From the NCBI GenBank assembly GCA_963753595.1, contig CAVWCX010000034.1, forward strand, positions 55,404-119,403: DNA of 64,000 nucleotides, given 5' to 3'. Under the pieces are notes generated by a model. It saw only the letters and a program-made list of their open reading frames with translations, did no database searches and was not told the origin of the DNA. This DNA is from Candidatus Methanoperedenaceae archaeon. Lineage in GTDB: Archaea; Halobacteriota; Methanosarcinia; Methanosarcinales; Methanoperedenaceae. Positions 12,438-24,532 of this stretch are shown here, piece by piece (position 1 is the stretch's first letter; each line of letters begins with the position of its first letter). The position numbers were made by a program, and so were the translations under genes.

Positions 12438-14390
12438 TCAAATTCCCCATCCCATGACTCTGGTTTTTTTCAGCGAAAAAAGCCTGGCCTTTATCAGGAC
12501 AATAAAACCCCCGATCATCAAAAAAGTTCCTCCCCAGAGAATATTCACCAGCGGCATGACCTTTGTGGTCAAACTTATCGGAGATTGATTTACCGTATCT
12601 CCATTAGAATGTACTATTATATCCGTGAATAAGGTCCGATGAATAAGGATTTTATGGAACTGGTCTGATCTCTCATTTTTCGTTAAGAACACAGTTCCAT
12701 ATCCATGAAGTAATCCGTTTTTATAAAAATTTAGATCCAGTGCCTGTTCCGATCCATTCACATTATTCACGATTTTATTATTGGCTATCTGGACGCTCCA
12801 TTCCGGATCTATATTTTGTGGGGTACTTAAATCCTTAAGATCATAATCAAGGATACCACCCCTTCCAAAAGATGTGGACACAATTGCACCAAGTATGATA
12901 AAAATAAATCCTGCATGGATCAACGCTATGCCGACATTGTTTTGTGAAAACCGATGTTTGATGCGAAAAGACCTGAAAAATATCCCCCCGGCCACAAGAA
13001 CTGTCATCGAAACATATGGGATGACAGTCCTTGAACCAATGAATTGCACAAGAAACGAAGATCGTTGATAGAAGTCCGAATCCGGGCTAAGAAGTGTGGG
13101 TGTTCCGGGCAAAAATGAGGTCAATGCTGAGATCATGGCCGCTGCAAGCATTATTCGCAGGAGGCTCTCAGGTTTTGCTACTACCTGGAGCATGCAATAT
13201 CCCGTTAATAAAACCAGCAACAGTATAATGGGAAAACTCCAAAAATTATAGAAGTCTTCCGGCATTGGGACAATTTCACCTGATATATTTTCTGAGATAA
13301 TTGAATTAACTGTGCCCCATAAAGGTATGAATGCCAGCAAACATAGAAAAAGAATGGTAGCGTGAAATGAACTTCGCATCGAACTCAGTGACTCTCTTCT
13401 CTGATTTTGAATATTTCTGTCTGGATCCGATCTATTTAAAACCAGGAATAATATTGCGATAATGGCCAGGAACAAAGCCGCAAGCAAGATCCGCCACACT
13501 TCGCTTCCCAGGAAATTGTGTTCCGAGCCGCGCACTCCTTTTCGCGCAAAGAACATTATGAAAATATTGAGAATTAATACGGATGCGGCTAACAGCGGTG
13601 CAGTTGTCCTGTACTCTTTTTCATTTCGCCTGTGTCTTACTATCGCATGCAGGGCGGCGGTCAGGATCAGCCAGGCGGCCAGGGTGCCGGATTGGATAGT
13701 ATCCCATTTCCAGTAACCTTTCCACTCCAGTGTCTCATATGCCCATAATCCTCCTGTCACCATCCCAAGTGATAACATAAGCCAGGATAACCTTCCCCAT
13801 GACCTCGCCGTGCCAGCCCACTCTTTTTCCCCCGAGTACAGATAGGCGGCAGCGGCTGCAAACAGGATGATGCTTGAAGCATATGCAATAATTAACAGCG
13901 GTGGATGGATCAGGAACCATGGGCTGATAAATTTTGGGCTTAAACCTATACCAGAAGATGCGTCTCCATTAAATGCTTCAAGAGTGAGTTGAAAAGGCGA
14001 ATCGACAAGAGTGATCACTAGCAATAAAAATTCTATACCCAGGGTTATACATAGTGTTATCCCGGAAAATCCATTATCCTCCCTGTTTTTTGCATGGAAT
14101 ATTAGAATGCACAACAAGGTCGCCCATGCCAATAATAATTGCATCCCCTGTTTTCCGGCCCACATGGCTGCAACTTTATAAAAAATAGGATATTCCCCGC
14201 CATATACATAGACATAATTTATATGAAGTCCTGCTGAAATAAAGTAGTAAACCAGCAGTAAAACTGCCGATGAAATAGAAATAAACGCCAGGCCAAGCAT
14301 CCAGGAAAAATATTTTTCATTTTTTCGAAGCATTATAGAAACTGCCAAAGCAAAAAATGATACCAATAAAAATATGTTTCCAATATTCAT
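12438..14390 (-). CDS. ccmF: Divergent CcmF-family heme lyase (paralogue 2), co-transcribed with the two multiheme cytochromes
   Basis: MWAGKQG, IHPP, altered WWD motif WAYETLEWKGYWKWDTIQSG, ALHA, SEHNF, LIHAG; starts 2 nt after the cytochrome stop. Confidence 0.85.
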   Translation of the reverse strand: MNIGNIFLLVSFFALAVSIMLRKNEKYFSWMLGLAFISISSAVLLLVYYFISAGLHINYVYVYGGEYPIFYKVAAMWAGKQGMQLLLAWATLLCILIFHAKNREDNGFSGITLCITLGIEFLLLVITLVDSPFQLTLEAFNGDASSGIGLSPKFISPWFLIHPPLLIIAYASSIILFAAAAAYLYSGEKEWAGTARSWGRLSWLMLSLGMVTGGLWAYETLEWKGYWKWDTIQSGTLAAWLILTAALHAIVRHRRNEKEYRTTAPLLAASVLILNIFIMFFARKGVRGSEHNFLGSEVWRILLAALFLAIIAILFLVLNRSDPDRNIQNQRRESLSSMRSSFHATILFLCLLAFIPLWGTVNSIISENISGEIVPMPEDFYNFWSFPIILLLVLLTGYCMLQVVAKPESLLRIMLAAAMISALTSFLPGTPTLLSPDSDFYQRSSFLVQFIGSRTVIPYVSMTVLVAGGIFFRSFRIKHRFSQNNVGIALIHAGFIFIILGAIVSTSFGRGGILDYDLKDLSTPQNIDPEWSVQIANNKIVNNVNGSEQALDLNFYKNGLLHGYGTVFLTKNERSDQFHKILIHRTLFTDIIVHSNGDTVNQSPISLTTKVMPLVNILWGGTFLMIGGFIVLIKARLFSLKKTRVMGWGI

Positions 14391-14392
14391 AA

Positions 14393-16630
14393 CTATCTAA
14401 GTTTCCGATATAGGTAAATCAATGTCAATACTCCAATAATAACAAATACCAGTTCCATATATTCGTATAAAAACCATGAACTCTCTTTTTTTAATATAAC
14501 AAGAGGCGCAGGCTTCACATCCCCCCATCTTCCTTTTGAATCCTGCGCATGTATTGAAACTATATGCGTTCCCTCTTTCAGGCCTGAGGTATCCACCTGT
14601 GCATAAGCCTCCCTCACCTGCCCTCCTGCCAGTTCTTTGCCCAGGGTCAAATTCCTGCCCCTTCCCCCTTCTCCAACCATGTCAATAAAATACTCAACAT
14701 TTGTAATGTTCGCCTCCCAGTCTGAGACCGCAAGGACGCTTAAGGAGATATTCTCGCCTGCATAGTTTTTCAGGGGGAGCATGATTATGTCCTTTATATA
14801 TGGTTCTGAATTTGATCTCTGGAGAACATGCAGGGCAATAGGAGTATCTCCGCCGTGGCAGAGCGTGCAGTTCTGTGCTGCCCTGTGCATAGGCTGGGTC
14901 AGGTTGGTGGCATTAAACGGAGGCTGGCTGCCATATCTAACATGACAATCAGAGCATTTGTTGATCCTGCTTCCATTGCTTGAGTTAAACACTCCAGGTG
15001 ATTGTATCGCTCCCGTGGGGAATTCGCTATAGTGGAATCTCTCAGTTCCAGTGGCGTTATGGCACGAATCGCATGATATGGTTCTTGATTCATTTGCTTT
15101 TGGCCCGGATTTTAAAAAATCTTTATCTTCTCCGGTCAGATTGTGGAACTGGTTTTTATTTTCATTATGGCAAACGCCGCAGGTGAGGGTTTTGTTTATC
15201 TTTTCTACAACAAATGAGCTATAGTGGGAGGCGTCATAACCCAGATGGCAGGTATTGCATGTAACATTTTGCAGGGTTTGTTTTATATGGGTATTATGGC
15301 AATCCGTGCAACTGGCAGGGCTGCTGTCCGTTGTCCTGCCCACAGGTCTCTCCCATACCAGAGAAGGCTTATGAAACCTGCTTATCCTTGATGAATCATG
15401 ACAGGTCTGGCAGTTTATTTTCATTCCGATTGCAGTATGTTCGGTCTGGTTACCATGGATAAGCCTTGGGATCTGGACCGCTGGCTTATAGGGATAATCT
15501 CCTTCGACACCGTGACATCCATAGCAGGATGAAGAATTGCCCTGTGAGATATTCTGATAAAGGATATTTTTAGTAAGAGAAAAGTTGTGCAAAGAAAAGT
15601 TAGAAGTTGTAATGTCACCAGTATTGGTATCAGCACTGACTAAAGTACTGGAAGATGTATGGCATTTTTCACACGTATAACTGGAATTTACTTTGATAGT
15701 GTTTGCACGTTCCTCAGGCGCGCCAGGATAATGCGTACGAATCTGATCTTTTGCCCCGTATTTTTTTACAGCGTCTGCTGAAGTATGGCATCTGACGCAT
15801 GTTTTTTCAGAAGGAACAGTGAGATTTGCGTCATGAAGCGTTCTAAGTGCACCTGAGGCATGGCAATCAGCGCACGACCCATTCTTTGTATGGGAATACA
15901 CCTGGGTTGCATTGCCCCACACCGTAGCATTGGCACTGTCTTTATGGCAGGATGAACAATCTGTTGAATTGTATATTACCTTCCCGCCGTAATGAGATAT
16001 ATTAGCTCTCGTATTATTAACTCCTTTTTTTACAACAGCATTGCTGTGGCAGTTCTCACAGCTCGTTTTGACTGTCAGTTTGTCTCCTGCTTTTGTATGA
16101 CCGCTAATGAGAGGGGCATTGTAAGCAGATCCGAATGAATGACACATTTCACAGGATTTCGGGGACCTGTAGTCTTCGGGATGCCCTGACGGCTTGCTCC
16201 CGTTACCGTGGCATGCCCAACATGCTTTATTAATGGGATCAACTGCCACTGCGTTTTCAGTCCTGTTATTGAGTTTTGCATGAACACTCTTCCTGAAAGC
16301 TTCAACATCGACTTGTTTTGGCGCAACTCCTCCCAGGCGGTGGCAGCCTGCACAATCAGGAGAAAAAGTTCCATTCATCAGGGCAGGTTCATGAAATGTT
16401 CCCGGAACACCACCGACAAGGACATCCTGGCCTGTACTTAATTCAGAACCTGTGTAATTACCGATAGTCTCATTGTAACCGATGATCACTGTCTCGTTTG
16501 ATATCTGGCGCACATCTTCGATGACAATAACTACATCAGGAGCTGAACTATCAGCGGCTGTTGAAATATTAATAACAACGATTAAAATGGCGGCCAAGAG
16601 TAGGGATTTCAGGTCTGTTTTCATCCTCAA
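14393..16630 (-). CDS. Multiheme c-type cytochrome, 16 CxxCH, signal peptide, C-terminal Ig-like domain and TM anchor (ATG at 16624 is the probable start)
   Basis: Counted CAGCH, CWACH, CEMCH, CENCH, CSSCH, CADCH, CVRCH, CEKCH, CYGCH, CQTCH, CTDCH, CNTCH, CGVCH, CDSCH, CSDCH, CTLCH. Confidence 0.92.
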   Translation of the reverse strand: MRMKTDLKSLLLAAILIVVINISTAADSSAPDVVIVIEDVRQISNETVIIGYNETIGNYTGSELSTGQDVLVGGVPGTFHEPALMNGTFSPDCAGCHRLGGVAPKQVDVEAFRKSVHAKLNNRTENAVAVDPINKACWACHGNGSKPSGHPEDYRSPKSCEMCHSFGSAYNAPLISGHTKAGDKLTVKTSCENCHSNAVVKKGVNNTRANISHYGGKVIYNSTDCSSCHKDSANATVWGNATQVYSHTKNGSCADCHASGALRTLHDANLTVPSEKTCVRCHTSADAVKKYGAKDQIRTHYPGAPEERANTIKVNSSYTCEKCHTSSSTLVSADTNTGDITTSNFSLHNFSLTKNILYQNISQGNSSSCYGCHGVEGDYPYKPAVQIPRLIHGNQTEHTAIGMKINCQTCHDSSRISRFHKPSLVWERPVGRTTDSSPASCTDCHNTHIKQTLQNVTCNTCHLGYDASHYSSFVVEKINKTLTCGVCHNENKNQFHNLTGEDKDFLKSGPKANESRTISCDSCHNATGTERFHYSEFPTGAIQSPGVFNSSNGSRINKCSDCHVRYGSQPPFNATNLTQPMHRAAQNCTLCHGGDTPIALHVLQRSNSEPYIKDIIMLPLKNYAGENISLSVLAVSDWEANITNVEYFIDMVGEGGRGRNLTLGKELAGGQVREAYAQVDTSGLKEGTHIVSIHAQDSKGRWGDVKPAPLVILKKESSWFLYEYMELVFVIIGVLTLIYLYRKLR

Positions 16631-16631
16631 C

Positions 16632-19600
16632 TCATCCTTTTACAAATATGTTCGCGATTTTCAGGCGCAAAATCGTGATATCCTTATCATTCAATGTAGT
16701 GTTGTATGTGAAGTATTCCCCTTCGGTTACAAATTCCTCTTTGACTTTTATATTGTCCTTTGTAAGAACTAACCATACATTCTTATTATCTGGACTGAAA
16801 TCCTTCATATAAAGTTCATAACCGTTTCCCATGTTCCAGGAATTATTTGAATAAAGCATTTTTTTATCCGCGGTATCAAAATCAATATCTATCGGACTTA
16901 ATGTTACATTCTGTTCATCCTTTTTGAGTACGGAATATTTCTGTCCGTCAGGCCAGTCAGCCCTGTATTCTTTGACATGGCAGGCATAGCACTGCACACT
17001 GGTCGTTTCAGTATGTATATGCGTTGGCACATACCCTTTGAATGTTATTAAGCTGACCATACCACCGTAGAAAATTTCAGGTATCTGCATATCTATAATG
17101 GTTTTATTTTCTCCTTCCTGCACCAACCTGTTTTCATATTTGAAGCCGCCCCCTTCCGTAACCAGCTCATCTTTTATTAATAGCCCATTATAATATAATT
17201 CTACCCATATGGATTTTCCTTCTTTATCTATATCCGCGATAGATATACTGTAGTTTTCGTTAATTCGCCAGGTATCATCTGAAACAAGCTTTTTTTCGAT
17301 GCTCGATAGACGTATTGTTTCCCTTGGGTCAGGCGGATTGCCCCATTTTTGGCTTGTTCTTTCGTTCTGGTGGCAGCTTATACAGTCCTTTGTATCTATT
17401 GTCGGATATTTTGCAAAATGAGATACGCTGGAATTTACGGTTTTACCAGAATAAAGGACATCATTAATATGGCAGGTAGTGCAGGCAGGTGTTCTTATCT
17501 GGCTGCTTCCCGGACTATGTGAAGAAATGTGCCCTCGCTTTATTTTCCCGGTCAGGTTAAGCTCACCCTCGATGTGGCATGATGAACAGGTGTTCGGAGG
17601 CTTCCCAATATCAGGATGGTCATTCGGTGCCGTTATAATATTTGAATGGCACGCCCAGCACGCCCTATCCAGTTCAGACCTGGCACCGTTTAAGTTTGCG
17701 TGCAGGCTCTTATTGATAGTTGACTCGCTTACTTTATTTGAGGCAAAGCCATCCGTTCCATGGCACTTTACGCAATTCGATAATGTATAACCCGTCATGT
17801 TAACAATGGTGGAATTATGGAGCCTGCCTGTGCTGTGGCACGAAGAGCAGCTCAGACCACCATTATGGGTTATATTAGTTCTTGAAATTTTATTGAATAC
17901 ATCCGAGAATTCAGAGGCAGGGTTCTGGTGGCAGTATGAGCAATTGGTACTGGTTTTATTTAAATCCAGCATATCAGTCCTGTTCTTGCCATAGTGAGAA
18001 ATAGTTGAATTTACAGTGCTGGCATTGAAATTTATCATCTGCGATTTTCTATGGCATAGCTGGCATGTTGCATTTACGGTGATGTTAACAGCATGGGTCG
18101 TATGTTCCGTCGCCTCAGGCGAACTGAAGAGTACAGTATTGTTGACATGGCATGTACTACAGGTATTTGCAGGTTCGGATAGGCCTGGATGCGTATCAGG
18201 CGCTTCACTGGAATTGGAGTGGCATGCCCAGCAGGCCTGATTGAGATTAGAGCTGGAACTCGCATTATTCAGGTTTGCATGGATGCTCAGGTTCATCACG
18301 GTTTCATTTATTTTCTTCGGAGCAAAGCCGCCGGTGCCGTGGCACTGCACGCAATTCGATAAACTATATCCCTGCATATTCGCAATGGTGGAATTATGAA
18401 GCCTGCCTGTTCCATGACAAGAAGAGCAGCTCAGGCCGCCATTATGGATGATGTTAGTCCTTGATGTTTTGTTGAAAACATCCGAGAATTCAGAATCAGG
18501 ATCCTGGTGGCAATATGAACAGTTTGTATTTGTTTTATTTAGATCAATCATGTCTGTTCTTTTCTTGCCATAGTGAGAAATTGTTGAATTCAGAGTACTC
18601 CCGTTGAGGTTTATCATCTGCGATTTGCCATGGCATAGCTGGCATGAGGCGTTCACAGAGATATTAGTTGCATGGAGTGTATGCTCTGTAGCTAATGGAG
18701 ATTTGATTTTTCCAGAATCGTTCACGTGGCAGGAAGCACATGTGAGCGCAGGCTTATGCATGGGATGTTTTTTCGGTGGTGTTGTTGAATTGGAATGACA
18801 TGCCCAGCATGCACGATTGAGGTTTGAGCTTGAATCATTTATATTAGAATGTATGCTCTGGTTCATGATATCCTGATTTATTTTCGGAAAGAGCCCTCCC
18901 ATCATTTCTTCACCCAATGCCTTACTATTGGTTCCGTGGCATCTCAGACAGTTTGATATTACTCCCATACCCATGCCGCCTGTCCCTGAAAGAGATGAAA
19001 TTGCAAATAGAGATAACGACTCTACGTAGTTAATCAAATTATTTTCTTTTGAATCAACCTCAGTTGGCAAAGTCACCCATGTTGAATTAGTATAATGAAT
19101 GATCGAAAGGTTGCTCTCGTTTACTTTTGTAAATTCTGCGTCATTATAAGTCACTTTAATATTTACACCACTGTAAGAATAGTTCCTGGCGGATATGCTG
19201 AAAAATTTAACAGGGCTCCCTGGCGGTGATGAGTCGGGCATGTCGTTACTGTTCACCTCAAGAGTTAATTCCGTTTTTTCTCTTCCAATAAAAGAAACAG
19301 ATATGGTTTCATCTCCCATTTCTTCGCAATCGTGCGATTTCACTGTCTGGACAGTAGCATTATGGATATGTTCTGAGTTATTTTCAGAATGGGAACTGAT
19401 TGCAAATAAAGACAGAGACCTGGCAGATGCATTCAATATGTTTTCTTCCTCATTTACATCCGTAGGCAGCATGGTCCACGTGGAATTTTCATAAATGAAA
19501 AGACGCAGGTCTTTCTCATTGATCCCATTTAAGTCCATTTCACAGTACGCTGCACTGATAGAGATGGATTCAAAAGATAGGTTTTGGGCACCCGGTCTGA

Positions 19601-19922
19601 AAAACCTGGCATGCAAACCATGCGGATGAACATCTACTGGATTATTTTTCTCAAAGTCCTCAATATTTACCGTTACATCTTGGGTACCGTTCTGTATAAT
19701 GGCAGCTGTAATGGTCAGGTTCGCATGAGCGTGCTCCGTTGAATTAGTAGAGTTTTCAGTCGAATTAGAATGGGTATGGTTCGATCGGTCCGCAGATTGC
19801 TCATTAATTGATGAATCGTAAGAAGAAGTGTTCGCAGCATTTACCACCGATGGAATAAACAGCAGACCCAATAGTATAATACCTGCAACCTGAGTTGCAT
19901 GAAAATTATTGTTTCTGTTCAT
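16632..19922 (-). CDS. Multiheme c-type cytochrome, 18 CxxCH, two N-terminal PGF-pre-PGF-like beta domains and C-terminal S-layer (DUF1608-like) modules
   Basis: 18 CxxCH counted; WxxLPT...SLSLFAISS occurs twice; DIDKEGKSIWVELYYNG and DNKNVWLVLTKDN are S-layer-type motifs; signal peptide, no C-terminal anchor. Confidence 0.92.
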   Translation of the reverse strand: MNRNNNFHATQVAGIILLGLLFIPSVVNAANTSSYDSSINEQSADRSNHTHSNSTENSTNSTEHAHANLTITAAIIQNGTQDVTVNIEDFEKNNPVDVHPHGLHARFFRPGAQNLSFESISISAAYCEMDLNGINEKDLRLFIYENSTWTMLPTDVNEEENILNASARSLSLFAISSHSENNSEHIHNATVQTVKSHDCEEMGDETISVSFIGREKTELTLEVNSNDMPDSSPPGSPVKFFSISARNYSYSGVNIKVTYNDAEFTKVNESNLSIIHYTNSTWVTLPTEVDSKENNLINYVESLSLFAISSLSGTGGMGMGVISNCLRCHGTNSKALGEEMMGGLFPKINQDIMNQSIHSNINDSSSNLNRACWACHSNSTTPPKKHPMHKPALTCASCHVNDSGKIKSPLATEHTLHATNISVNASCQLCHGKSQMINLNGSTLNSTISHYGKKRTDMIDLNKTNTNCSYCHQDPDSEFSDVFNKTSRTNIIHNGGLSCSSCHGTGRLHNSTIANMQGYSLSNCVQCHGTGGFAPKKINETVMNLSIHANLNNASSSSNLNQACWACHSNSSEAPDTHPGLSEPANTCSTCHVNNTVLFSSPEATEHTTHAVNITVNATCQLCHRKSQMINFNASTVNSTISHYGKNRTDMLDLNKTSTNCSYCHQNPASEFSDVFNKISRTNITHNGGLSCSSCHSTGRLHNSTIVNMTGYTLSNCVKCHGTDGFASNKVSESTINKSLHANLNGARSELDRACWACHSNIITAPNDHPDIGKPPNTCSSCHIEGELNLTGKIKRGHISSHSPGSSQIRTPACTTCHINDVLYSGKTVNSSVSHFAKYPTIDTKDCISCHQNERTSQKWGNPPDPRETIRLSSIEKKLVSDDTWRINENYSISIADIDKEGKSIWVELYYNGLLIKDELVTEGGGFKYENRLVQEGENKTIIDMQIPEIFYGGMVSLITFKGYVPTHIHTETTSVQCYACHVKEYRADWPDGQKYSVLKKDEQNVTLSPIDIDFDTADKKMLYSNNSWNMGNGYELYMKDFSPDNKNVWLVLTKDNIKVKEEFVTEGEYFTYNTTLNDKDITILRLKIANIFVKG
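17640..18960 (-). repeat. Intragenic tandem duplication of a hexaheme module (579-bp / 193-aa period)
   Basis: gcaattcgat at 17772 and 18351; protein repeats NSTISHYGK.RTDM.DLNKT.TNCSYCHQ.P.SEFSDVFNK.SRTNI.HNGGLSCSSCH.TGRLHNSTI. Confidence 0.85.
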
Positions 19923-20091: not shown

Positions 20092-20175
20092 ATGAAAGAG
20101 GTGAAAACATTGAAGATCAGAAAGATAAAGAAAATCGCCAAGGGAACATGTAAATGTCACTCTTCCTGCGCTTAA
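20092..20175 (+). CDS. Putative RiPP precursor peptide (MKEVKT)LKIRKIKKIAKGTCKCHSSCA
   Basis: Open frame ATG 20092 to TAA 20175; GAGGTGA SD precedes an in-frame TTG at 20110 (21 aa); basic N-terminus, Cys-rich C-terminus; upstream of an rSAM/SPASM gene. Confidence 0.6.
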   Translation: MKEVKTLKIRKIKKIAKGTCKCHSSCA

Positions 20176-20196
20176 TCAGACTGAATTGGTTAATCA

Positions 20197-20361
20197 ATGA
20201 CAAACAAAGAAATAAATCCTTATGTAAGCCTTATCTGCACCCACTGCGAATTCTTCAAGGAAGATGATTTCGAGCTTGAATGTGCAGCATTCAAAGTATT
20301 AAAAACCATGCTTCAGGAAGGCAGGATAAAACCAGCTGAGATAAAAGATGTCTTCAGGTAA
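20197..20361 (+). CDS. Small Cys-containing protein (54 aa), coupled to the radical SAM gene
   Basis: MTNKEINPYVSLICTHCEFFKEDDFELECAAFKVLKTMLQEGRIKPAEIKDVFR; overlaps the rSAM start at 20348. Confidence 0.65.
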   Translation: MTNKEINPYVSLICTHCEFFKEDDFELECAAFKVLKTMLQEGRIKPAEIKDVFR

Positions 20362-21520
20362 ATATCACGTGCTTGCGCCGGGCTATATCCTGCGCGAGCT
20401 TGAATCCCCTGTTGTATATAATATCATTAAAGACGAGTTGTACGAACTTGACGAGGAGGCGTTTCATTTTTTAAAAAAATGTAATGGAGGGAATCCTTTC
20501 CCGGATCTGCTCTTGAATGGCAAAAGCGATGAAAATATTGATTTCATGCAGGATGAAGGGATCATCCGGTTGGCAGAAGGAAAGGAGATAAGAAAAATTA
20601 AAACTCACAGATCACCGATCCCTTCACTACGTTATCTTCTTTTAAATATTACGAATATATGCAATCTCGCCTGTAAGCATTGCTATCTCCAGTATCCAGG
20701 AAAACTTGAGATAGATCTTGATGTTTTTGAAAAAGCGGTATCGCAATTTGAAGAAATTGGCGGTTTAAAACTCATGATCTCTGGTGGTGAACCGCTGGTC
20801 CATTCAAGATTCTGGGAACTTATGGAGATACTTCCATCGTATGAATTAAGAGTGGTTGTCCTGTCAAACGGAACCCTGATAGACAGGAACACTTCAAGAA
20901 AATTATCCGATTATGTTCATGAAGTGCAGGTCAGTATCGACGGTATCTATTCTCATGATTTACTGCGAGGAAAAGGTTCGTATGCAAAGTCAATGAAAGG
21001 TATTTCCAACTTAAATGAATACGGGATACCCATTTCGATCGCTACCATGGTACATAAATTCAATACAGGTGAATTTGAGGAGATGGAAAAGCTTTTTTCA
21101 AAGACAGGAGCAATTTCATGGAGCGTTGATGTTCCATGTATCGTGGGTTCACTTTGTGAAAACAAGGATTTTGTTCTTGATTTGAAAGAAGCCGCCAATT
21201 TTTTGGAATACGGTTTTGGTGCCGGATCACATGAAAGCACTGGTGATCATACCTGCGGTTCTCACTTATGTTCGGTATCGCCCGATGGTTCAGTCAGTAA
21301 ATGCGGATTTTTTGAAAATGAACCTGCAGGGACTGTTAATGATCTTCGGTCTGCATGGAAAAACATTTGCATGTCCTACTTATGGAAACTTGATGAACTT
21401 GAATGCAAGGATTGCGCTGTACTTTCCGAATGTAAAGGCGGATGCAGGTTCAGGGCAAAGCAATACAAAGGAATACTTGCGCCTGACCCTTTGATGTGCC
21501 AGGTTAATTTACATTTGTAA
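20348..21520 (+). CDS. Radical SAM/SPASM domain protein with N-terminal PqqD/RRE-like extension
   Basis: CNLACKHC, SGGEP, VQVSIDG..HD..RG; SPASM-type CGSHLC..PDG.V.KC...CKDC.....CKGGC; N-terminal VVYNIIKDELYELDEEAFHFL. Confidence 0.9.
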   Translation: MSSGKYHVLAPGYILRELESPVVYNIIKDELYELDEEAFHFLKKCNGGNPFPDLLLNGKSDENIDFMQDEGIIRLAEGKEIRKIKTHRSPIPSLRYLLLNITNICNLACKHCYLQYPGKLEIDLDVFEKAVSQFEEIGGLKLMISGGEPLVHSRFWELMEILPSYELRVVVLSNGTLIDRNTSRKLSDYVHEVQVSIDGIYSHDLLRGKGSYAKSMKGISNLNEYGIPISIATMVHKFNTGEFEEMEKLFSKTGAISWSVDVPCIVGSLCENKDFVLDLKEAANFLEYGFGAGSHESTGDHTCGSHLCSVSPDGSVSKCGFFENEPAGTVNDLRSAWKNICMSYLWKLDELECKDCAVLSECKGGCRFRAKQYKGILAPDPLMCQVNLHL

Positions 21521-21697: not shown

Positions 21698-22177
21698 ATG
21701 AGAACCAAAAAACTGTTGTCCATACTTATCCTGGCATTAATTTTAGCATTCGCATATTTCAGTTATCAAACTGCACTTAATAATTTTACCTTGAGCGATA
21801 AGAACAACAGCTATCTTGGTGGCATAAAATTTCACCGCGCAGCAGAAGGACTCGAAGAAAGTTTCCAGATAGCACAGCAGGAAAATAAGCCTGTCATGAT
21901 GTATTTCTGGGCGATCTGGTGCCAGTATTGTGCAAAATTCCAGACAGAAACTCTGGGAAATCCCCAGGTCAAGAAAATCCTTGAGGAAGATTATCTTCTT
22001 GTTGCGATGGACCTCGATATTGACAGGGAAGTCGCCCAAAAATATGGGGTGAGTTACCCCCCATATCTTGTTTTCATGGACCCGAAAGGAAATGTCCTCG
22101 AGAGAGTTCCAGGGGCGGTTGACGCGGATTATCTGCTTCCAATTGTTACCCGGGTAAGAGACCAGGTCAGGAGATAA
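21698..22177 (+). CDS. Membrane-anchored thioredoxin-fold protein (CcmG/SoxW-like)
   Basis: N-terminal TM, WCQYC, YGVSYPP; 3 nt upstream of ccmF paralogue 3. Confidence 0.88.
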   Translation: MRTKKLLSILILALILAFAYFSYQTALNNFTLSDKNNSYLGGIKFHRAAEGLEESFQIAQQENKPVMMYFWAIWCQYCAKFQTETLGNPQVKKILEEDYLLVAMDLDIDREVAQKYGVSYPPYLVFMDPKGNVLERVPGAVDADYLLPIVTRVRDQVRR

Positions 22178-22180
22178 AAC

Positions 22181-24532
22181 ATGATACCATTAGGAGACAT
22201 ATTACTTTATGCAAGTCTTGCAATTAGCGTTCTTGCACTTGCTGGATTGCTGTTGAAAGACCGGAAAAATATAGATGTTCTGGACCGGTATGCAACACCT
22301 GCAATATTACTGGTGGCAGGGCTTCTCACATTCGCTTATCTTCTCCTTACTTATTATTTCGTAACAGGCAACTTTGCCTTTGATTATGTCTGGCAGTACT
22401 CAAGCAACGACCTTCCTCTTGTTTATAAACTATCCGGTACATGGGCGGGGCAGCCAGGTACATACCTCCTCTGGGTGTGGGTAGTATTCCTGTCAGCGGG
22501 ATGGCTTGCATGGACTACAAAACATAATACCTCGCTTGCAAGAAGAACCCAGATAATTACACTTATCACAGGCATATACCTGATAATTCTTACACTGATA
22601 CAGTCGCCATTCAAGTTAATAATCGACAGGCCTGAAGTTGTTAAATTGATTGCAGATGGGACCCTGACACCTGATTTTGTTCCCGAAGTCGGCAATGGCC
22701 TGAATGCTCTTCTTGTCAATTTCTGGATGATCGTGCATCCGCCTTTTATGTTCATTGGATACGCGACAATGACGATACCATTTGCCGCAGCTATTGTTTA
22801 CCTGCTTACTAAAGAAGATGGCTGGGAAGAACTTGGCAGGCAGTGGACGCGGTTTACCTGGTTGATCCTTGGAATGGGCATAGCAGTGGGCGGAGTCTGG
22901 GCATACCTTGTGCTTGGATGGGGCGGATTCTGGGCATGGGACCCTGTTGAAACGGCTTCGTTCATACCATGGCTTACACTCACAGGTTTCATGCATGCAG
23001 CAGCCATTCACAGAAAGGACAAAACTACATTTTCAATAGCAGCTCCCATGCTTGCTGCGGTTTCATTCATCCTTGTACTATATGCAGCCATCGTTGTTCG
23101 AAGCGGACTTTTCAATTCAGTCCATGCTTTCGGGGATACATCAACCGGAACCCTTCTCATATTGTCCATAGTAATTACATCGATCGTTTCCATCGTCCTG
23201 GGAATGCGTCGTTACTTTGAAGAGCCTGATAAAGTGGAGGAAGACCGCGGGTTCTGGAACAAGACGAATATTTTCTATGTTTCTCTTCTTATGTTCGTGG
23301 TGCTGGCATTCATATCTTTCTGGGGTATTACATTCCCGGCTTTTATCCAGCTTACGCAGGGTCTTAAAGTGGGAGTGGCCTCAGATACAAAGAATTTTTT
23401 TAACGTCTGGAGTTATCCTTTCACGATCATTCTGTTGATGGCACTTGGTTTCTGTCTGACCTACAATGAAAAGAAAAAGGAAGAACAGAAAAGGACATTG
23501 TACATGGTAATTGTTTTGACAATTATAACAATGTTCGCCCGGACTGAAAACTTTTATGTACTTGACCATAGCAGTCCCTTCTGGGTAAGGGAGCCGCCGT
23601 TCTATAAATTGATCGGCAATATCTCGGTAATATCTCTTTTCCCATCCATGATATATGCAACATGGGCAATAATAAAACGAAGTATTGACTATTTGCGGAT
23701 AAAAAGTTTAAGACCAAAGATAAAAGGGATTGGTATAGCGATAGTTCACTTTGGTGTTATATTCATTCTTTTTGGAGCGGTCATTAGCTCAAATTTCACC
23801 GAGAAAATCGAGGGGATAAATATACCCCTTTCGGCAAAAGGAGAAAGTGTAAATGTCGGGCATGGTTATGATATTAAGTTAATTGATTTTACAACACGCA
23901 GCCTCTCCGGCGATGCGCCGGCAGGTGGATTAAAGATATCAGAAATATTCGTAAATCCAGGGGATTATGTAAATAAACCTGTTAAAGTAAGCGGTAAAGT
24001 CAAAGATGTCGCCGTAGTCAAGACTCCACCATCTTTTACTACATATATGGAAATAGATGACGGGTCAGGCAGCCTGTGGGCTGTAGCGCAGGCGGAAAGT
24101 CCCCTGGATATCCGGAAAGGTGAGGAACTTTCCGTGAATGGTTTCATGATGACAAATTTCAGGAGTAACTCAACTGGCAGGACATATGATCTCATCATAT
24201 TCTCAAATCCGGAAGAAATCACCGGTGCGGTTTCCTCAGGCAAATATAAAGTCCAGAGCGTAGAACTTGAAGTTTATAAGGATCAAACGAAAATCGGAAG
24301 CGGAACCGCCGAGTACCTGGAATCAGACGGTGGAAGCGGAACATTCCCGCTTGTAGAGAGCAGCATAACAGGAACGGATGTTTATGTTATTTTCCAGGGT
24401 ATTGGCGGCGGAGTGATCCCTCTTACTCTGCGGATCATACCTGCAGTGAATTTTGCATGGATCGGCATAGTACTCTTCGCGATTGGGATAATACTGATAA
24501 TGGCAGTGAAATCAAGACAAAAAGAAGGATAA
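22181..24532 (+). CDS. ccmF: Heme lyase CcmF (paralogue 3) with an inserted OB-fold-like domain in the C-terminal soluble region
   Basis: WAGQPG, GLNALL..WMIVHPP, WAYLVLGWGGFWAWDPVETASFIPW, SVHAF; insert PGDYVNKPVKVSGKV...IDDGSGSLW...GEELSVNG. Confidence 0.9.
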   Translation: MIPLGDILLYASLAISVLALAGLLLKDRKNIDVLDRYATPAILLVAGLLTFAYLLLTYYFVTGNFAFDYVWQYSSNDLPLVYKLSGTWAGQPGTYLLWVWVVFLSAGWLAWTTKHNTSLARRTQIITLITGIYLIILTLIQSPFKLIIDRPEVVKLIADGTLTPDFVPEVGNGLNALLVNFWMIVHPPFMFIGYATMTIPFAAAIVYLLTKEDGWEELGRQWTRFTWLILGMGIAVGGVWAYLVLGWGGFWAWDPVETASFIPWLTLTGFMHAAAIHRKDKTTFSIAAPMLAAVSFILVLYAAIVVRSGLFNSVHAFGDTSTGTLLILSIVITSIVSIVLGMRRYFEEPDKVEEDRGFWNKTNIFYVSLLMFVVLAFISFWGITFPAFIQLTQGLKVGVASDTKNFFNVWSYPFTIILLMALGFCLTYNEKKKEEQKRTLYMVIVLTIITMFARTENFYVLDHSSPFWVREPPFYKLIGNISVISLFPSMIYATWAIIKRSIDYLRIKSLRPKIKGIGIAIVHFGVIFILFGAVISSNFTEKIEGINIPLSAKGESVNVGHGYDIKLIDFTTRSLSGDAPAGGLKISEIFVNPGDYVNKPVKVSGKVKDVAVVKTPPSFTTYMEIDDGSGSLWAVAQAESPLDIRKGEELSVNGFMMTNFRSNSTGRTYDLIIFSNPEEITGAVSSGKYKVQSVELEVYKDQTKIGSGTAEYLESDGGSGTFPLVESSITGTDVYVIFQGIGGGVIPLTLRIIPAVNFAWIGIVLFAIGIILIMAVKSRQKEG

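Follow-up and report, generated by a model that had tools for sequence, protein, structure and literature searches.

Within a 64,000-nucleotide stretch from a Candidatus Methanoperedenaceae archaeon (contig CAVWCX010000034.1, positions 55,404 to 119,403; hereafter the window), three neighbouring genes encode a cysteine-rich micro-peptide of 21 residues, a 54-residue protein with three conserved cysteines (p54) and a radical S-adenosylmethionine (rSAM) enzyme, and we consider that together they probably encode a peptide that is synthesised by the ribosome, the enzyme that modifies it and, in p54, an accessory. Names of near-identical proteins assign the window to Candidatus Methanoperedens. The trio recurs in organisms as far apart as methane-oxidising archaea and sulfate-reducing bacteria, and its product is most likely a modified peptide of a sort that has not been described. 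It is a new family inside a known kind, the rSAM/SPASM peptide maturases, and stands out by its extra partner and by the degree to which its precursor is conserved. A sequence-only reading of the window had placed two small open reading frames (ORFs) directly upstream of the rSAM gene, and all three ORFs lie where it put them, including the 54-residue CTHC..C protein that overlaps the rSAM start. The parts of the trio, in positions of the window, are as follows.

20092..20109, + strand: in-frame ATG extension MKEVKT, which would give the peptide a 27-residue reading; it contains the GAGGTGA site itself
20098..20104, + strand: GAGGTGA ribosome-binding site, read from the sequence, 5 bases before the TTG start of the peptide gene
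20110..20175, + strand: putative precursor peptide gene, 21 codons plus stop, (M)KIRKIKKIAKGTCKCHSSCA, with a TTG start and its stop at 20173-20175
20197..20361, + strand: p54, 54 residues, with C14, C17, C29 and a conserved acidic stretch; 14-base overlap with the rSAM start
20348..21520, + strand: rSAM enzyme, whole ORF, 390 residues
20348..20617, + strand: rSAM residues 1-90, probable N-terminal leader-binding (RRE-type) domain according to the AlphaFold2 model, the SkfB/SuiB alignments and the CteB profile match
20618..21229, + strand: rSAM residues 91-294, radical SAM core with CxxxCxxC at C105/C109/C112, from the Pfam Radical_SAM match and the invariant cysteines
21230..21520, + strand: rSAM residues 295-390 plus stop, SPASM-type cysteine region, from the invariant cysteines, the orthologue names and the predicted contacts

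The peptide gene can be read from either of two starts, an ATG at 20092 that would give 27 residues or a conserved TTG at 20110 that gives 21. Among the 83 peptide ORFs in loci L008-L129, the start position is shared by all (83/83, as ATG, GTG or TTG), the length is 18-26 and mostly 20-21 residues, and nearly all carry a GGAGG/GAGGTG-type site 5-9 bases before the start, a few (e.g. those of L099 and L102) having no ribosome-binding site in the 18 upstream bases shown. Because the ORFs fetched elsewhere start at the TTG position, the 21-residue reading from 20110 is the correct one here, and the MKEVKT extension is probably not translated as part of the peptide. Thus, where the sequence-only reading had described a peptide of 21-27 residues behind a GAGGTGA site, the ORF, the site and the shorter length stand, and the longer form probably does not.

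The peptide combines a basic N-terminus (residues 1-6, MKIRKI) with a C-terminal core, CKCxxSC. Over 47 distinct archaeal coding sequences, the ratio of nonsynonymous to synonymous polymorphism (pN/pS) is 0.22 for the full peptide and drops to 0.055 in its last eight codons; by this codon-level measure the gene is genuine and its peptide under strong purifying selection. A comparison of 29 peptides from the two domains of life showed no variation at C14, K15, C16 and C20 and a conservation of at least 90% at I3, K5 and S19. The histidine of CKCH is not kept outside the archaea, where S, K, N, A or G takes its place; the notion of CKCH as a CXXCH-like haem-binding motif was dropped on this account. 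We likewise dropped the notion of a shortened ribosomal protein L36, suggested by an N-terminal resemblance, as the peptide has no Pfam match and occurs in archaea. All seven peptide sequences searched for (7/7) were missing from a collection of 15 billion proteins. Pfam and NCBIfam hold no family for the window's peptide, and three further peptides matched no NCBIfam family, one of them (L136) no Pfam family either. The locus had been called unannotated, which holds for the peptide and not for the 54-residue ORF, as the latter is listed as a hypothetical protein.

The peptide follows the enzyme across genomes. A degenerate DNA pattern for GTCKC(H/N)xSC, with the reversed pattern as control, matched 27 of the 49 genomes of the genus (control: 0), and the peptide was found, at no more than two mismatches and with the translation checked, in 15 of 17 further enzyme-holding genomes, among them members of three other genera of the family and of two other families of the order. 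Taken together, the peptide is present in 41 of the 43 genomes with the enzyme in a sample of 201 from the order; of the two that lack it, one has an enzyme fragment at a contig end and the other is 93% complete. In 16 of the 41 archaeal genomes that hold the peptide and the p54-rSAM pair, the two are no more than 400 bp apart. Through two subsets of the p54 family, we further obtained 26 bacterial loci spanning Thermoleophilia and other Actinomycetota, Rokubacteria, Bacillota, Abyssobacteria and Geothermincolales-like bacteria. The enzyme directly follows the p54 relative in 26/26 of them, at 31-45% identity to that of the window and mostly near full length, and 22 of the 26 contain a homologous 20-residue ORF, mostly 39-264 bases past the enzyme stop (e.g. 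MKIRKSGKKSSSTCKCSSSC). Three of the four loci without a peptide end inside the enzyme or 16 bases past it, and in the fourth none was present in the approximately 200 bases between the enzyme and the locus end.

In the opposite direction, when 185,579 species genomes were scanned with a peptide-only pattern that includes no stop codon, at least 121 loci matched, 80 of which were fetched. They comprise 67 ORFs of 20-21 residues that stop 0-1 residue past the last cysteine, one repeat-core variant from Promethearchaeota that adjoins the enzyme and p54, and 12 chance matches. For 41 of these 67 ORFs, reached by the peptide pattern alone, an rSAM orthologue lies within 2 kb. The carriers found in this way are Desulfobacterales, Desulfarculaceae, Syntrophales, Desulfomonilaceae, Geobacteraceae, Thermodesulfovibrionales and other Nitrospirota, Archaeoglobaceae, Chloroflexia, Actinomycetota, Rokubacteria and Methanoperedens. 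The peptide adjoins enzyme homologues in Actinomycetota, Rokubacteria, Bacillota, Desulfobacterota, Nitrospirota, Archaeoglobaceae and an Asgard archaeon, and its conservation next to the enzyme extends over archaea and at least six phyla of bacteria. The conservation next to rSAM homologues that had been proposed as a check is therefore seen in 16/41 archaeal genomes and 22/26 bacterial loci, and the system is not specific to archaea, as it also occurs in bacteria. In five of five genomes reached through peptide loci, an rSAM orthologue was found elsewhere in the genome (E 1e-79 to 1e-104); four of these have no rSAM gene within 2 kb of that peptide copy and one is linked, one is a closed chromosome, and the rSAM loci of three hold a second peptide copy, from which we take multi-copy, partly unlinked precursor genes to be the rule. 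The gene order differs between loci, with the peptide before p54-rSAM, after the rSAM gene or divergent from it, and that the linkage is kept through such rearrangements argues for a functional link between peptide and enzyme.

Several variants of the peptide gene were seen along the way. In an Asgard archaeon (Promethearchaeota), the precursor variant MKIVKKVKRVSAACKCGDSCISNGCKCGDSCISN... (L163:1100-1260, - strand) repeats the core at least twice (CKCGDSCISN x2); it is divergent from the rSAM gene, and there p54 comes after the rSAM gene and not before it. Multi-core precursors are typical of modified-peptide systems. In a Thermodesulfobacteriota locus (L185:1998-2226, + strand), two tandem precursor genes 100 bases apart, with the cores CKCKSSC and CKCHSSC, precede the tandem-p54 and rSAM genes, and a Thermodesulfovibrio contig (L154/L155) carries two identical peptide genes 1.8 kb apart. 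A second Methanoperedens subtype, MTIRKIKKVKHGICKCHSSCA or with GMCKCH (L076-L081, L100, L074), occupies a fixed site between an NrpR-domain gene and a convergent gene that is of unknown kind or encodes DUF2227; it is also the subtype carried by the enzyme-free genome G056.

The enzyme belongs to the radical SAM superfamily by its match to Pfam PF04055 (Radical_SAM, 77.9 bits against a cut-off of 29.5, E 1.3e-21, residues 99-249). In 20 orthologues, the cysteines C105, C109 and C112 are invariant, as are C303, C308, C319, C341, C353, C356, C362, C366 and C384 in the C-terminal part. The SPASM domain is defined by a seven-cysteine motif for two auxiliary clusters, CX9-15GX4C...CX2CX5CX3C...C, which is present here as C303...G314xxxxC319, C353xxC356x5C362x3C366 and C384, and the orthologues are named in their sources as radical SAM proteins with a 4Fe4S-binding SPASM domain. 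The nearest solved sequence is SkfB (E 5.5e-15), and the AlphaFold2 model (predicted local distance difference test score, pLDDT, 78.6) has SkfB, CteB and SuiB as its best Foldseek matches. In the model, the N-terminal domain consists of four strands and a helix, followed by strand-helix-helix-strand. Alignments with VIA-align to SkfB (Z 26.4, model residues 11-383) and SuiB (Z 24.4, residues 6/7-379) take in these N-terminal approximately 90 residues, opposite the leader-binding domains of both, and in a family profile residues 18-214 align with residues 13-235 of CteB.

Among the known families, 75 radical SAM families of NCBIfam match the enzyme, all far under their cut-offs, with NirJ2 as the best (108 bits against 500). 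The score is 99.4 against 500 on AhbD (TIGR04545), 79.2 against 650 on AhbC (TIGR04546) and 76.5-108 against 500-650 on the NirJ family (TIGR04051/04054/04055). In a whole-genome search this gene reached 84.9 (AhbD) and 67.9 (AhbC) bits, and other loci of the same genome 572 (AhbD) and 756 (AhbC). Judged by these profile scores, the enzyme is not AhbC, AhbD or NirJ, and the genome has its own AhbC and AhbD. A clustering with these haem-synthesis enzymes, named beforehand as an outcome that would speak against a peptide maturase, was thus not found (68-108 bits against 500-650), and the NCBIfam assignment suggested at the same time gave no family above cut-off. The named maturases ScmE/F, GeoRSP, MftC, WgkB, StsB, AlbA, ACGX, PapB, DynA and AmcB scored at best 95 against 400, and a bacterial fused homologue likewise remained under the cut-offs of the named NCBIfam peptide maturases.

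The second small protein, p54, lies immediately 5' of the rSAM gene in all 21 related loci with upstream DNA (21/21), and given the 14-base overlap it is, as read from the gene layout, translationally coupled to it. A profile search of 1.84 billion proteins gave a family of 87 representative clusters, in which C14, C17, F19 and C29 are invariant and an E/D-rich stretch beside the cysteines is conserved; the domain is conserved throughout and has no variable core. In Desulfobacterota, the gene between the peptide and the enzyme encodes two tandem p54-type domains, and in six fetched loci tandem p54 is in one open frame with the enzyme. An N-terminal fusion of p54 to the rSAM enzyme makes up 26 protein clusters of approximately 500 residues and 46-90% identity, all with a radical SAM domain, the coverage being 91-100% in 25 and 56% in one. 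As free, duplicated and fused forms are expected of an enzyme subunit, they argue for p54 as a subunit and not a substrate. From gene order and fusions we infer that p54 is a dedicated accessory of the enzyme and not a second precursor. The AlphaFold2 model of p54 (pLDDT 83) has helices at 8-14, 30-40 and 46-53; it gave no Foldseek match at E 0.001 or better, and the best VIA-align Z score over 48,161 chains was 3.2. The window's p54 has no family in Pfam or NCBIfam, the single and tandem forms gave nothing above their cut-offs, and its ESM Atlas neighbours are all hypothetical proteins without a Pfam family. The three invariant cysteines suggest a metal or cluster site, and the acidic stretch could meet the basic leader of the peptide.

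Two further observations concern unusual forms of p54. The metagenomic protein P0232 (120 residues) joins an rSAM-type N-terminus, YALAPHCSLKRLETPALYD..., to p54, an order that is the reverse of that in Rokubacteria genomes and may be a real permuted form or an artefact of gene calling or assembly; since Rokubacteria loci have the usual p54-then-rSAM order in different frames, we dropped this protein as evidence. In a Nitrospirota genome (G202), both rSAM copies (C14:5967-7082 and C13:235751-236866) lie in a 442-residue frame with one in-frame TAG, which may mark the p54/rSAM junction or read-through.

When the enzyme, p54 and the peptide were co-folded with their alignments, the complex score was 0.78 (runs 0.79, 0.78 and 0.77) against 0.01 for the best of three controls; the mark set for this score is reached by 116 of 157 solved complexes and 2 of 215 mismatched pairs. 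The runs had at least 70% of their contacts in common, with a partner pLDDT of at least 58. In the predicted complex, peptide residues 1-6 run along the strand at enzyme residues 30-35 and also contact 22-23, 37-38, 41 and the helix at 61-70, a set that includes the invariant Y32, D35, E37, A38, F41 and E70. The CKC residues (14-16) contact enzyme residues 259, 261, 289-297, 303-304, 307, 319 and 362-366; these positions correspond to a conserved FGAGxHES stretch and to the cysteines of the SPASM region. As modelled, this pose corresponds to the leader-on-RRE, core-at-auxiliary-cluster mode of solved maturases.

Here we propose that the 21-codon gene would encode the precursor, with the basic MKIRKI N-terminus as the recognition element. 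This element would dock on the RRE-type domain at the enzyme's N-terminus by adding a strand to it and thus bring the CKCxxSC core to the active site beside the auxiliary iron-sulfur clusters, where the enzyme would act on it by SAM-derived radical chemistry. The likeliest product would be a peptide with one to three intramolecular cysteine thioether links, as in sactipeptides and ranthipeptides, and p54, as a dedicated subunit, might bind a metal or cluster or chaperone the basic leader. Thioether formation is the commonest chemistry of such enzymes with cysteine-rich cores; anSME oxidises cysteine, and SuiB makes a Lys-Trp carbon-carbon link instead of a thioether, so that the fold does not fix the chemistry. 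The product would work inside anaerobe cells as a small redox-active or metal-binding peptide or cofactor precursor and not as a secreted antibiotic. This intracellular role seems probable because no protease or exporter is linked to the genes and because the peptide sequence is near-fixed across two domains of life; like the thioether chemistry, it is inferred.

The genes around the trio in the window are the following.

16632-19922, - strand: multihaem c-type cytochrome, 1096 residues, with many CxxCH motifs, repeated modules of approximately 190 residues and a C-terminal S-layer domain
14393-16630 and 12438-14390, - strand: two further large ORFs after the multihaem cytochrome
21698-22177, + strand: thioredoxin-like gene with a signal-anchor-like N-terminus, downstream of the trio
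22181-24532, + strand: CcmF/NrfE-type haem lyase, 783 residues, with a long C-terminal extension, 3 bases after the thioredoxin-like gene

The genes that had led to the description of a cytochrome island are therefore present in the window, and the setting itself is not conserved: thioredoxin-like, CcmF or cytochrome genes such as those of the window occur within 1.5 kb in 0 of 22 other loci of relatives. Three other genomes (L044, L069, L086) have CcmH or CcmE adjoining the trio or a copy of the peptide, and an operon for cytochrome c, NrfC-like and NrfD-like proteins diverges from p54-rSAM in six Thermoleophilia and Actinomycetes loci; we treat these recurring neighbours as a lead only. No recurrent protease or exporter was found near the archaeal or bacterial trio and peptide loci. 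The bacterial neighbourhoods are equally varied and include disulfide oxidoreductases, rubrerythrin, glutaredoxin, superoxide dismutase, FMN reductases and some cytochromes, which points, if only weakly, to redox physiology. P-type ATPase or HMA neighbours are limited to a minority of Methanoperedens loci. Rfam gave no match in the window between 15000 and 26000 (E up to 1) or in nine bacterial loci. Between the divergent cytochrome c operon and p54-rSAM, a conserved intergenic element is present in six of seven aligned Thermoleophilia and Actinomycetes loci (L104-L115), approximately 250 bases 5' of the p54 gene; it includes the near-palindrome GTACCCTCAGGGGTAT followed by TTGTCAAGATG, has no Rfam match and may be a shared operator and promoter. 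The palindrome may resemble CsoR-type operators, and the copper link that it and the P-type ATPase or HMA neighbours would suggest is a lead and not a finding.

Several observations weigh against the trio as a precursor with its maturase. In 25 of the 41 archaeal genomes with both, the peptide lies away from the enzyme, among heterogeneous neighbours that include FAD oxidoreductases, an F420-dependent reductase, a P-type ATPase, an HMA-domain protein, rhodanese, Usp, an NrpR-domain protein, DUF2227, MC1, CcmE and CcmH. The peptide pattern matched six of 21 genomes for which an enzyme orthologue was not detected or not listed, all six among the 13 family genomes of this set and none among its eight outgroup genomes. 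G056, G042, G064 and G096, which are 91-99% complete (G056 is 99% complete, in 6 contigs), have a peptide match and neither an rSAM orthologue nor p54; a re-search of these four and of the peptide-negative G060 found enzyme and p54 absent in 5/5, the best enzyme-search matches being paralogues (E 1e-16 to 1e-21). The match in G042 lacks the basic N-terminus and may be due to chance. The incomplete genomes G006 and G016 also hold the peptide, and no rSAM orthologue was found there. Thus, the peptide can persist without this enzyme. With regard to the enzyme, the Pfam PqqD and SPASM models do not match its isolated ends even at E up to 10, so that both assignments rest on motif and structure: the RRE extension of approximately 90 residues that the sequence-only reading had seen is supported as an RRE-type fold by the SkfB, SuiB and CteB alignments and not by the PqqD profile, and the full SPASM cysteine set is borne out by its invariance in the 20 orthologues. 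With regard to the complex, a partner of fewer than 30 residues is shorter than anything in the calibration, the model may remember the solved SuiB-SuiA and CteB-CteA complexes, so that a pass denotes likeness and not binding, and p54 has no confident contacts in the prediction.

The occurrence of the peptide in enzyme-free genomes, and its many dispersed copies, would also be explained if it were an independent metal-binding or regulatory micro-protein, with a basic helix and a C-x-C-x-x-x-C metal site, that serves the enzyme only as a partner, for instance by donating a metal or sulfur or as a scaffold for building a cofactor, or has no part in its work. Some Methanoperedens copies do adjoin P-type ATPase, HMA-domain, rhodanese-domain or DUF2227 "metal-binding" proteins, and a sequence near fixed across domains is unlike typical natural-product precursors. 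However, such metal-related neighbours are a minority among heterogeneous ones, the linkage to the enzyme is kept in many phyla and several gene orders, a repeat-core variant exists, and the invariant residues of the enzyme's probable leader-binding domain coincide with the contacts predicted for the peptide; we regard this explanation as unlikely. Our estimate is a little lower still, and thus clearly on the unlikely side, for the possibility that p54 is itself the substrate or co-substrate, with its cysteines cross-linked to the acidic stretch as in QhpC/QhpD, and the micro-peptide unrelated. It would account for the strict coupling of p54 to the enzyme (21/21 related and 26/26 bacterial loci, joint absence in 5/5 genomes tested), for the invariant C14, C17 and C29 next to a conserved E/D-rich stretch and for the micro-peptide without the enzyme in several genomes. 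Substrates fused to their own enzyme exist, and fusion alone does not exclude this possibility. Yet the N-terminal fusion in 26 clusters and the Desulfobacterota tandem are what an enzyme domain would show, p54 is conserved over its entire length and leaves no variable core, the micro-peptide accompanies the pair into at least six bacterial phyla, and it is the micro-peptide that the model places on the RRE-type domain and active site (0.78 against 0.01).

The surroundings of the trio bring in a third explanation, namely that the enzyme matures haem or cytochrome c, as an AhbC/AhbD/NirJ-like enzyme or a modifier of apocytochrome, and that the small ORFs are incidental. Thioredoxin-like and CcmF-type genes after the trio, a multihaem cytochrome before it on the other strand, NirJ2 and AhbD as top NCBIfam matches, the CcmH or CcmE neighbours of the trio or of peptide copies in three further genomes and the cytochrome c operon that diverges from the pair in six loci of Thermoleophilia and Actinomycetes would fit such a function. 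It is nevertheless highly improbable, given that the matches reach 68-108 bits against 500-650 with only the generic core aligned, that AhbD and AhbC score above their cut-offs elsewhere in the genome, that the thioredoxin/CcmF/cytochrome context is found in 0/22 other loci of relatives and cytochrome genes are missing from most bacterial neighbourhoods, and that the enzyme carries a probable peptide-binding N-terminal domain, which haem enzymes are not known to have. A peptide precursor with its rSAM/SPASM maturase and p54 as accessory is therefore the explanation that we prefer.

The carriers of this proposed system are environmentally important anaerobes, namely methane oxidisers, sulfate reducers, syntrophs and Asgard archaea, and should it yield a cofactor or a peptide active with metals or in redox reactions, a missing part of the physiology of anaerobes would be supplied. 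Going further, and with the odds rather against it, we speculate that the trio might make a peptide-derived cofactor or metallopeptide of strict-anaerobe core physiology, a cysteine-based counterpart of mycofactocin and pyrroloquinoline quinone (PQQ), with the p54 domain as a new cluster- or metal-binding rSAM subunit. If true, this would cover sulfate and metal reducers, syntrophs, Thermodesulfovibrio-type Nitrospirota, Archaeoglobi, Methanoperedens and Asgard archaea, and it would have gone unnoticed since a 20-codon gene lies under the cut-off of every gene finder. The p54 domain, which occurs free, in tandem or fused and has no family model and no structural match, is itself undescribed. 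In addition, co-occurrence with radical SAM enzymes can recover genes that are too small for annotation.

No curated Pfam or NCBIfam family covers the peptide, p54 or this enzyme clade. The core strings CKCSSSC, CKCHSSC, CKCKSSC, TCKCSS and TCKCHS were found in no paper of the open literature searched, which does not take in subscription texts, supplements and 1.7 million PMC articles, and no description of this system was found among the papers listed there on Methanoperedens rSAM peptides, rSAM/SPASM precursors or archaeal ranthipeptides. A study on Methanococcus voltae (PMC13692751) describes the closest archaeal case, which belongs to a different family and in which CrpC, an RRE-containing rSAM/SPASM enzyme of TIGR04463, puts ranthionine links on the cysteine-rich product of a neighbouring gene, CrpA, and a second small neighbour, CrpB, may be a helper. 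CrpA is a large protein with ten 17-residue repeats, and TIGR04463 is outside the best 25 NCBIfam matches of the enzyme described here. The screen in that study excluded proteins of fewer than 100 residues and so could not find this peptide.

With the SCIFF system and its maturase CteB (Tte1186; PDB 5WGG, 5WHY), the trio shares a conserved small cysteine-rich peptide in anaerobes beside an rSAM/SPASM enzyme whose N-terminal domain is an RRE in CteB and probably of RRE type here, and CteB is among the top fold matches of the enzyme as well as its profile match (18-214 against 13-235). The SCIFF system is likewise not known to have a dedicated exporter or protease. Its precursor, however, is approximately 45 residues long with six cysteines and is found mainly in Clostridia, whereas the precursor here has 20-21 residues and three cysteines, occurs in Desulfobacterota, Nitrospirota, Actinomycetota and archaea, matched no NCBIfam peptide or maturase model, and comes with an extra obligatory three-cysteine partner. 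The best whole-chain matches, leader-binding domain included, are SkfB, which acts on SkfA in sactipeptide formation (6EFN), and SuiB, which acts on SuiA in streptide formation (5V1T), and the predicted leader docking appears to resemble the solved SuiB-SuiA mode. The identity to SkfB and SuiB is only 16-23%, the precursors are unrelated, and whereas the SkfA and SuiA products are secreted, no exporter or protease is linked here.

In overall design, the trio may be compared with mycofactocin (MftA/MftB/MftC) and PQQ (PqqA/PqqD/PqqE), where a precursor of 20-30 residues with an invariant C-terminal part is combined with an rSAM/SPASM enzyme and a small partner, the precursor genes can be multi-copy and unlinked, and the products are intracellular. 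MftC and PqqE are among the NCBIfam and PDB matches of the enzyme, with the MftC model at 93 against a cut-off of 265 and PqqE outside the best 25 NCBIfam matches. In contrast to these pathways, no peptidase or further tailoring genes are linked here, the partner p54 has no Pfam or structural match and is not PqqD-like, the probable RRE-type domain is within the enzyme itself, and the core of the peptide is based on cysteine.

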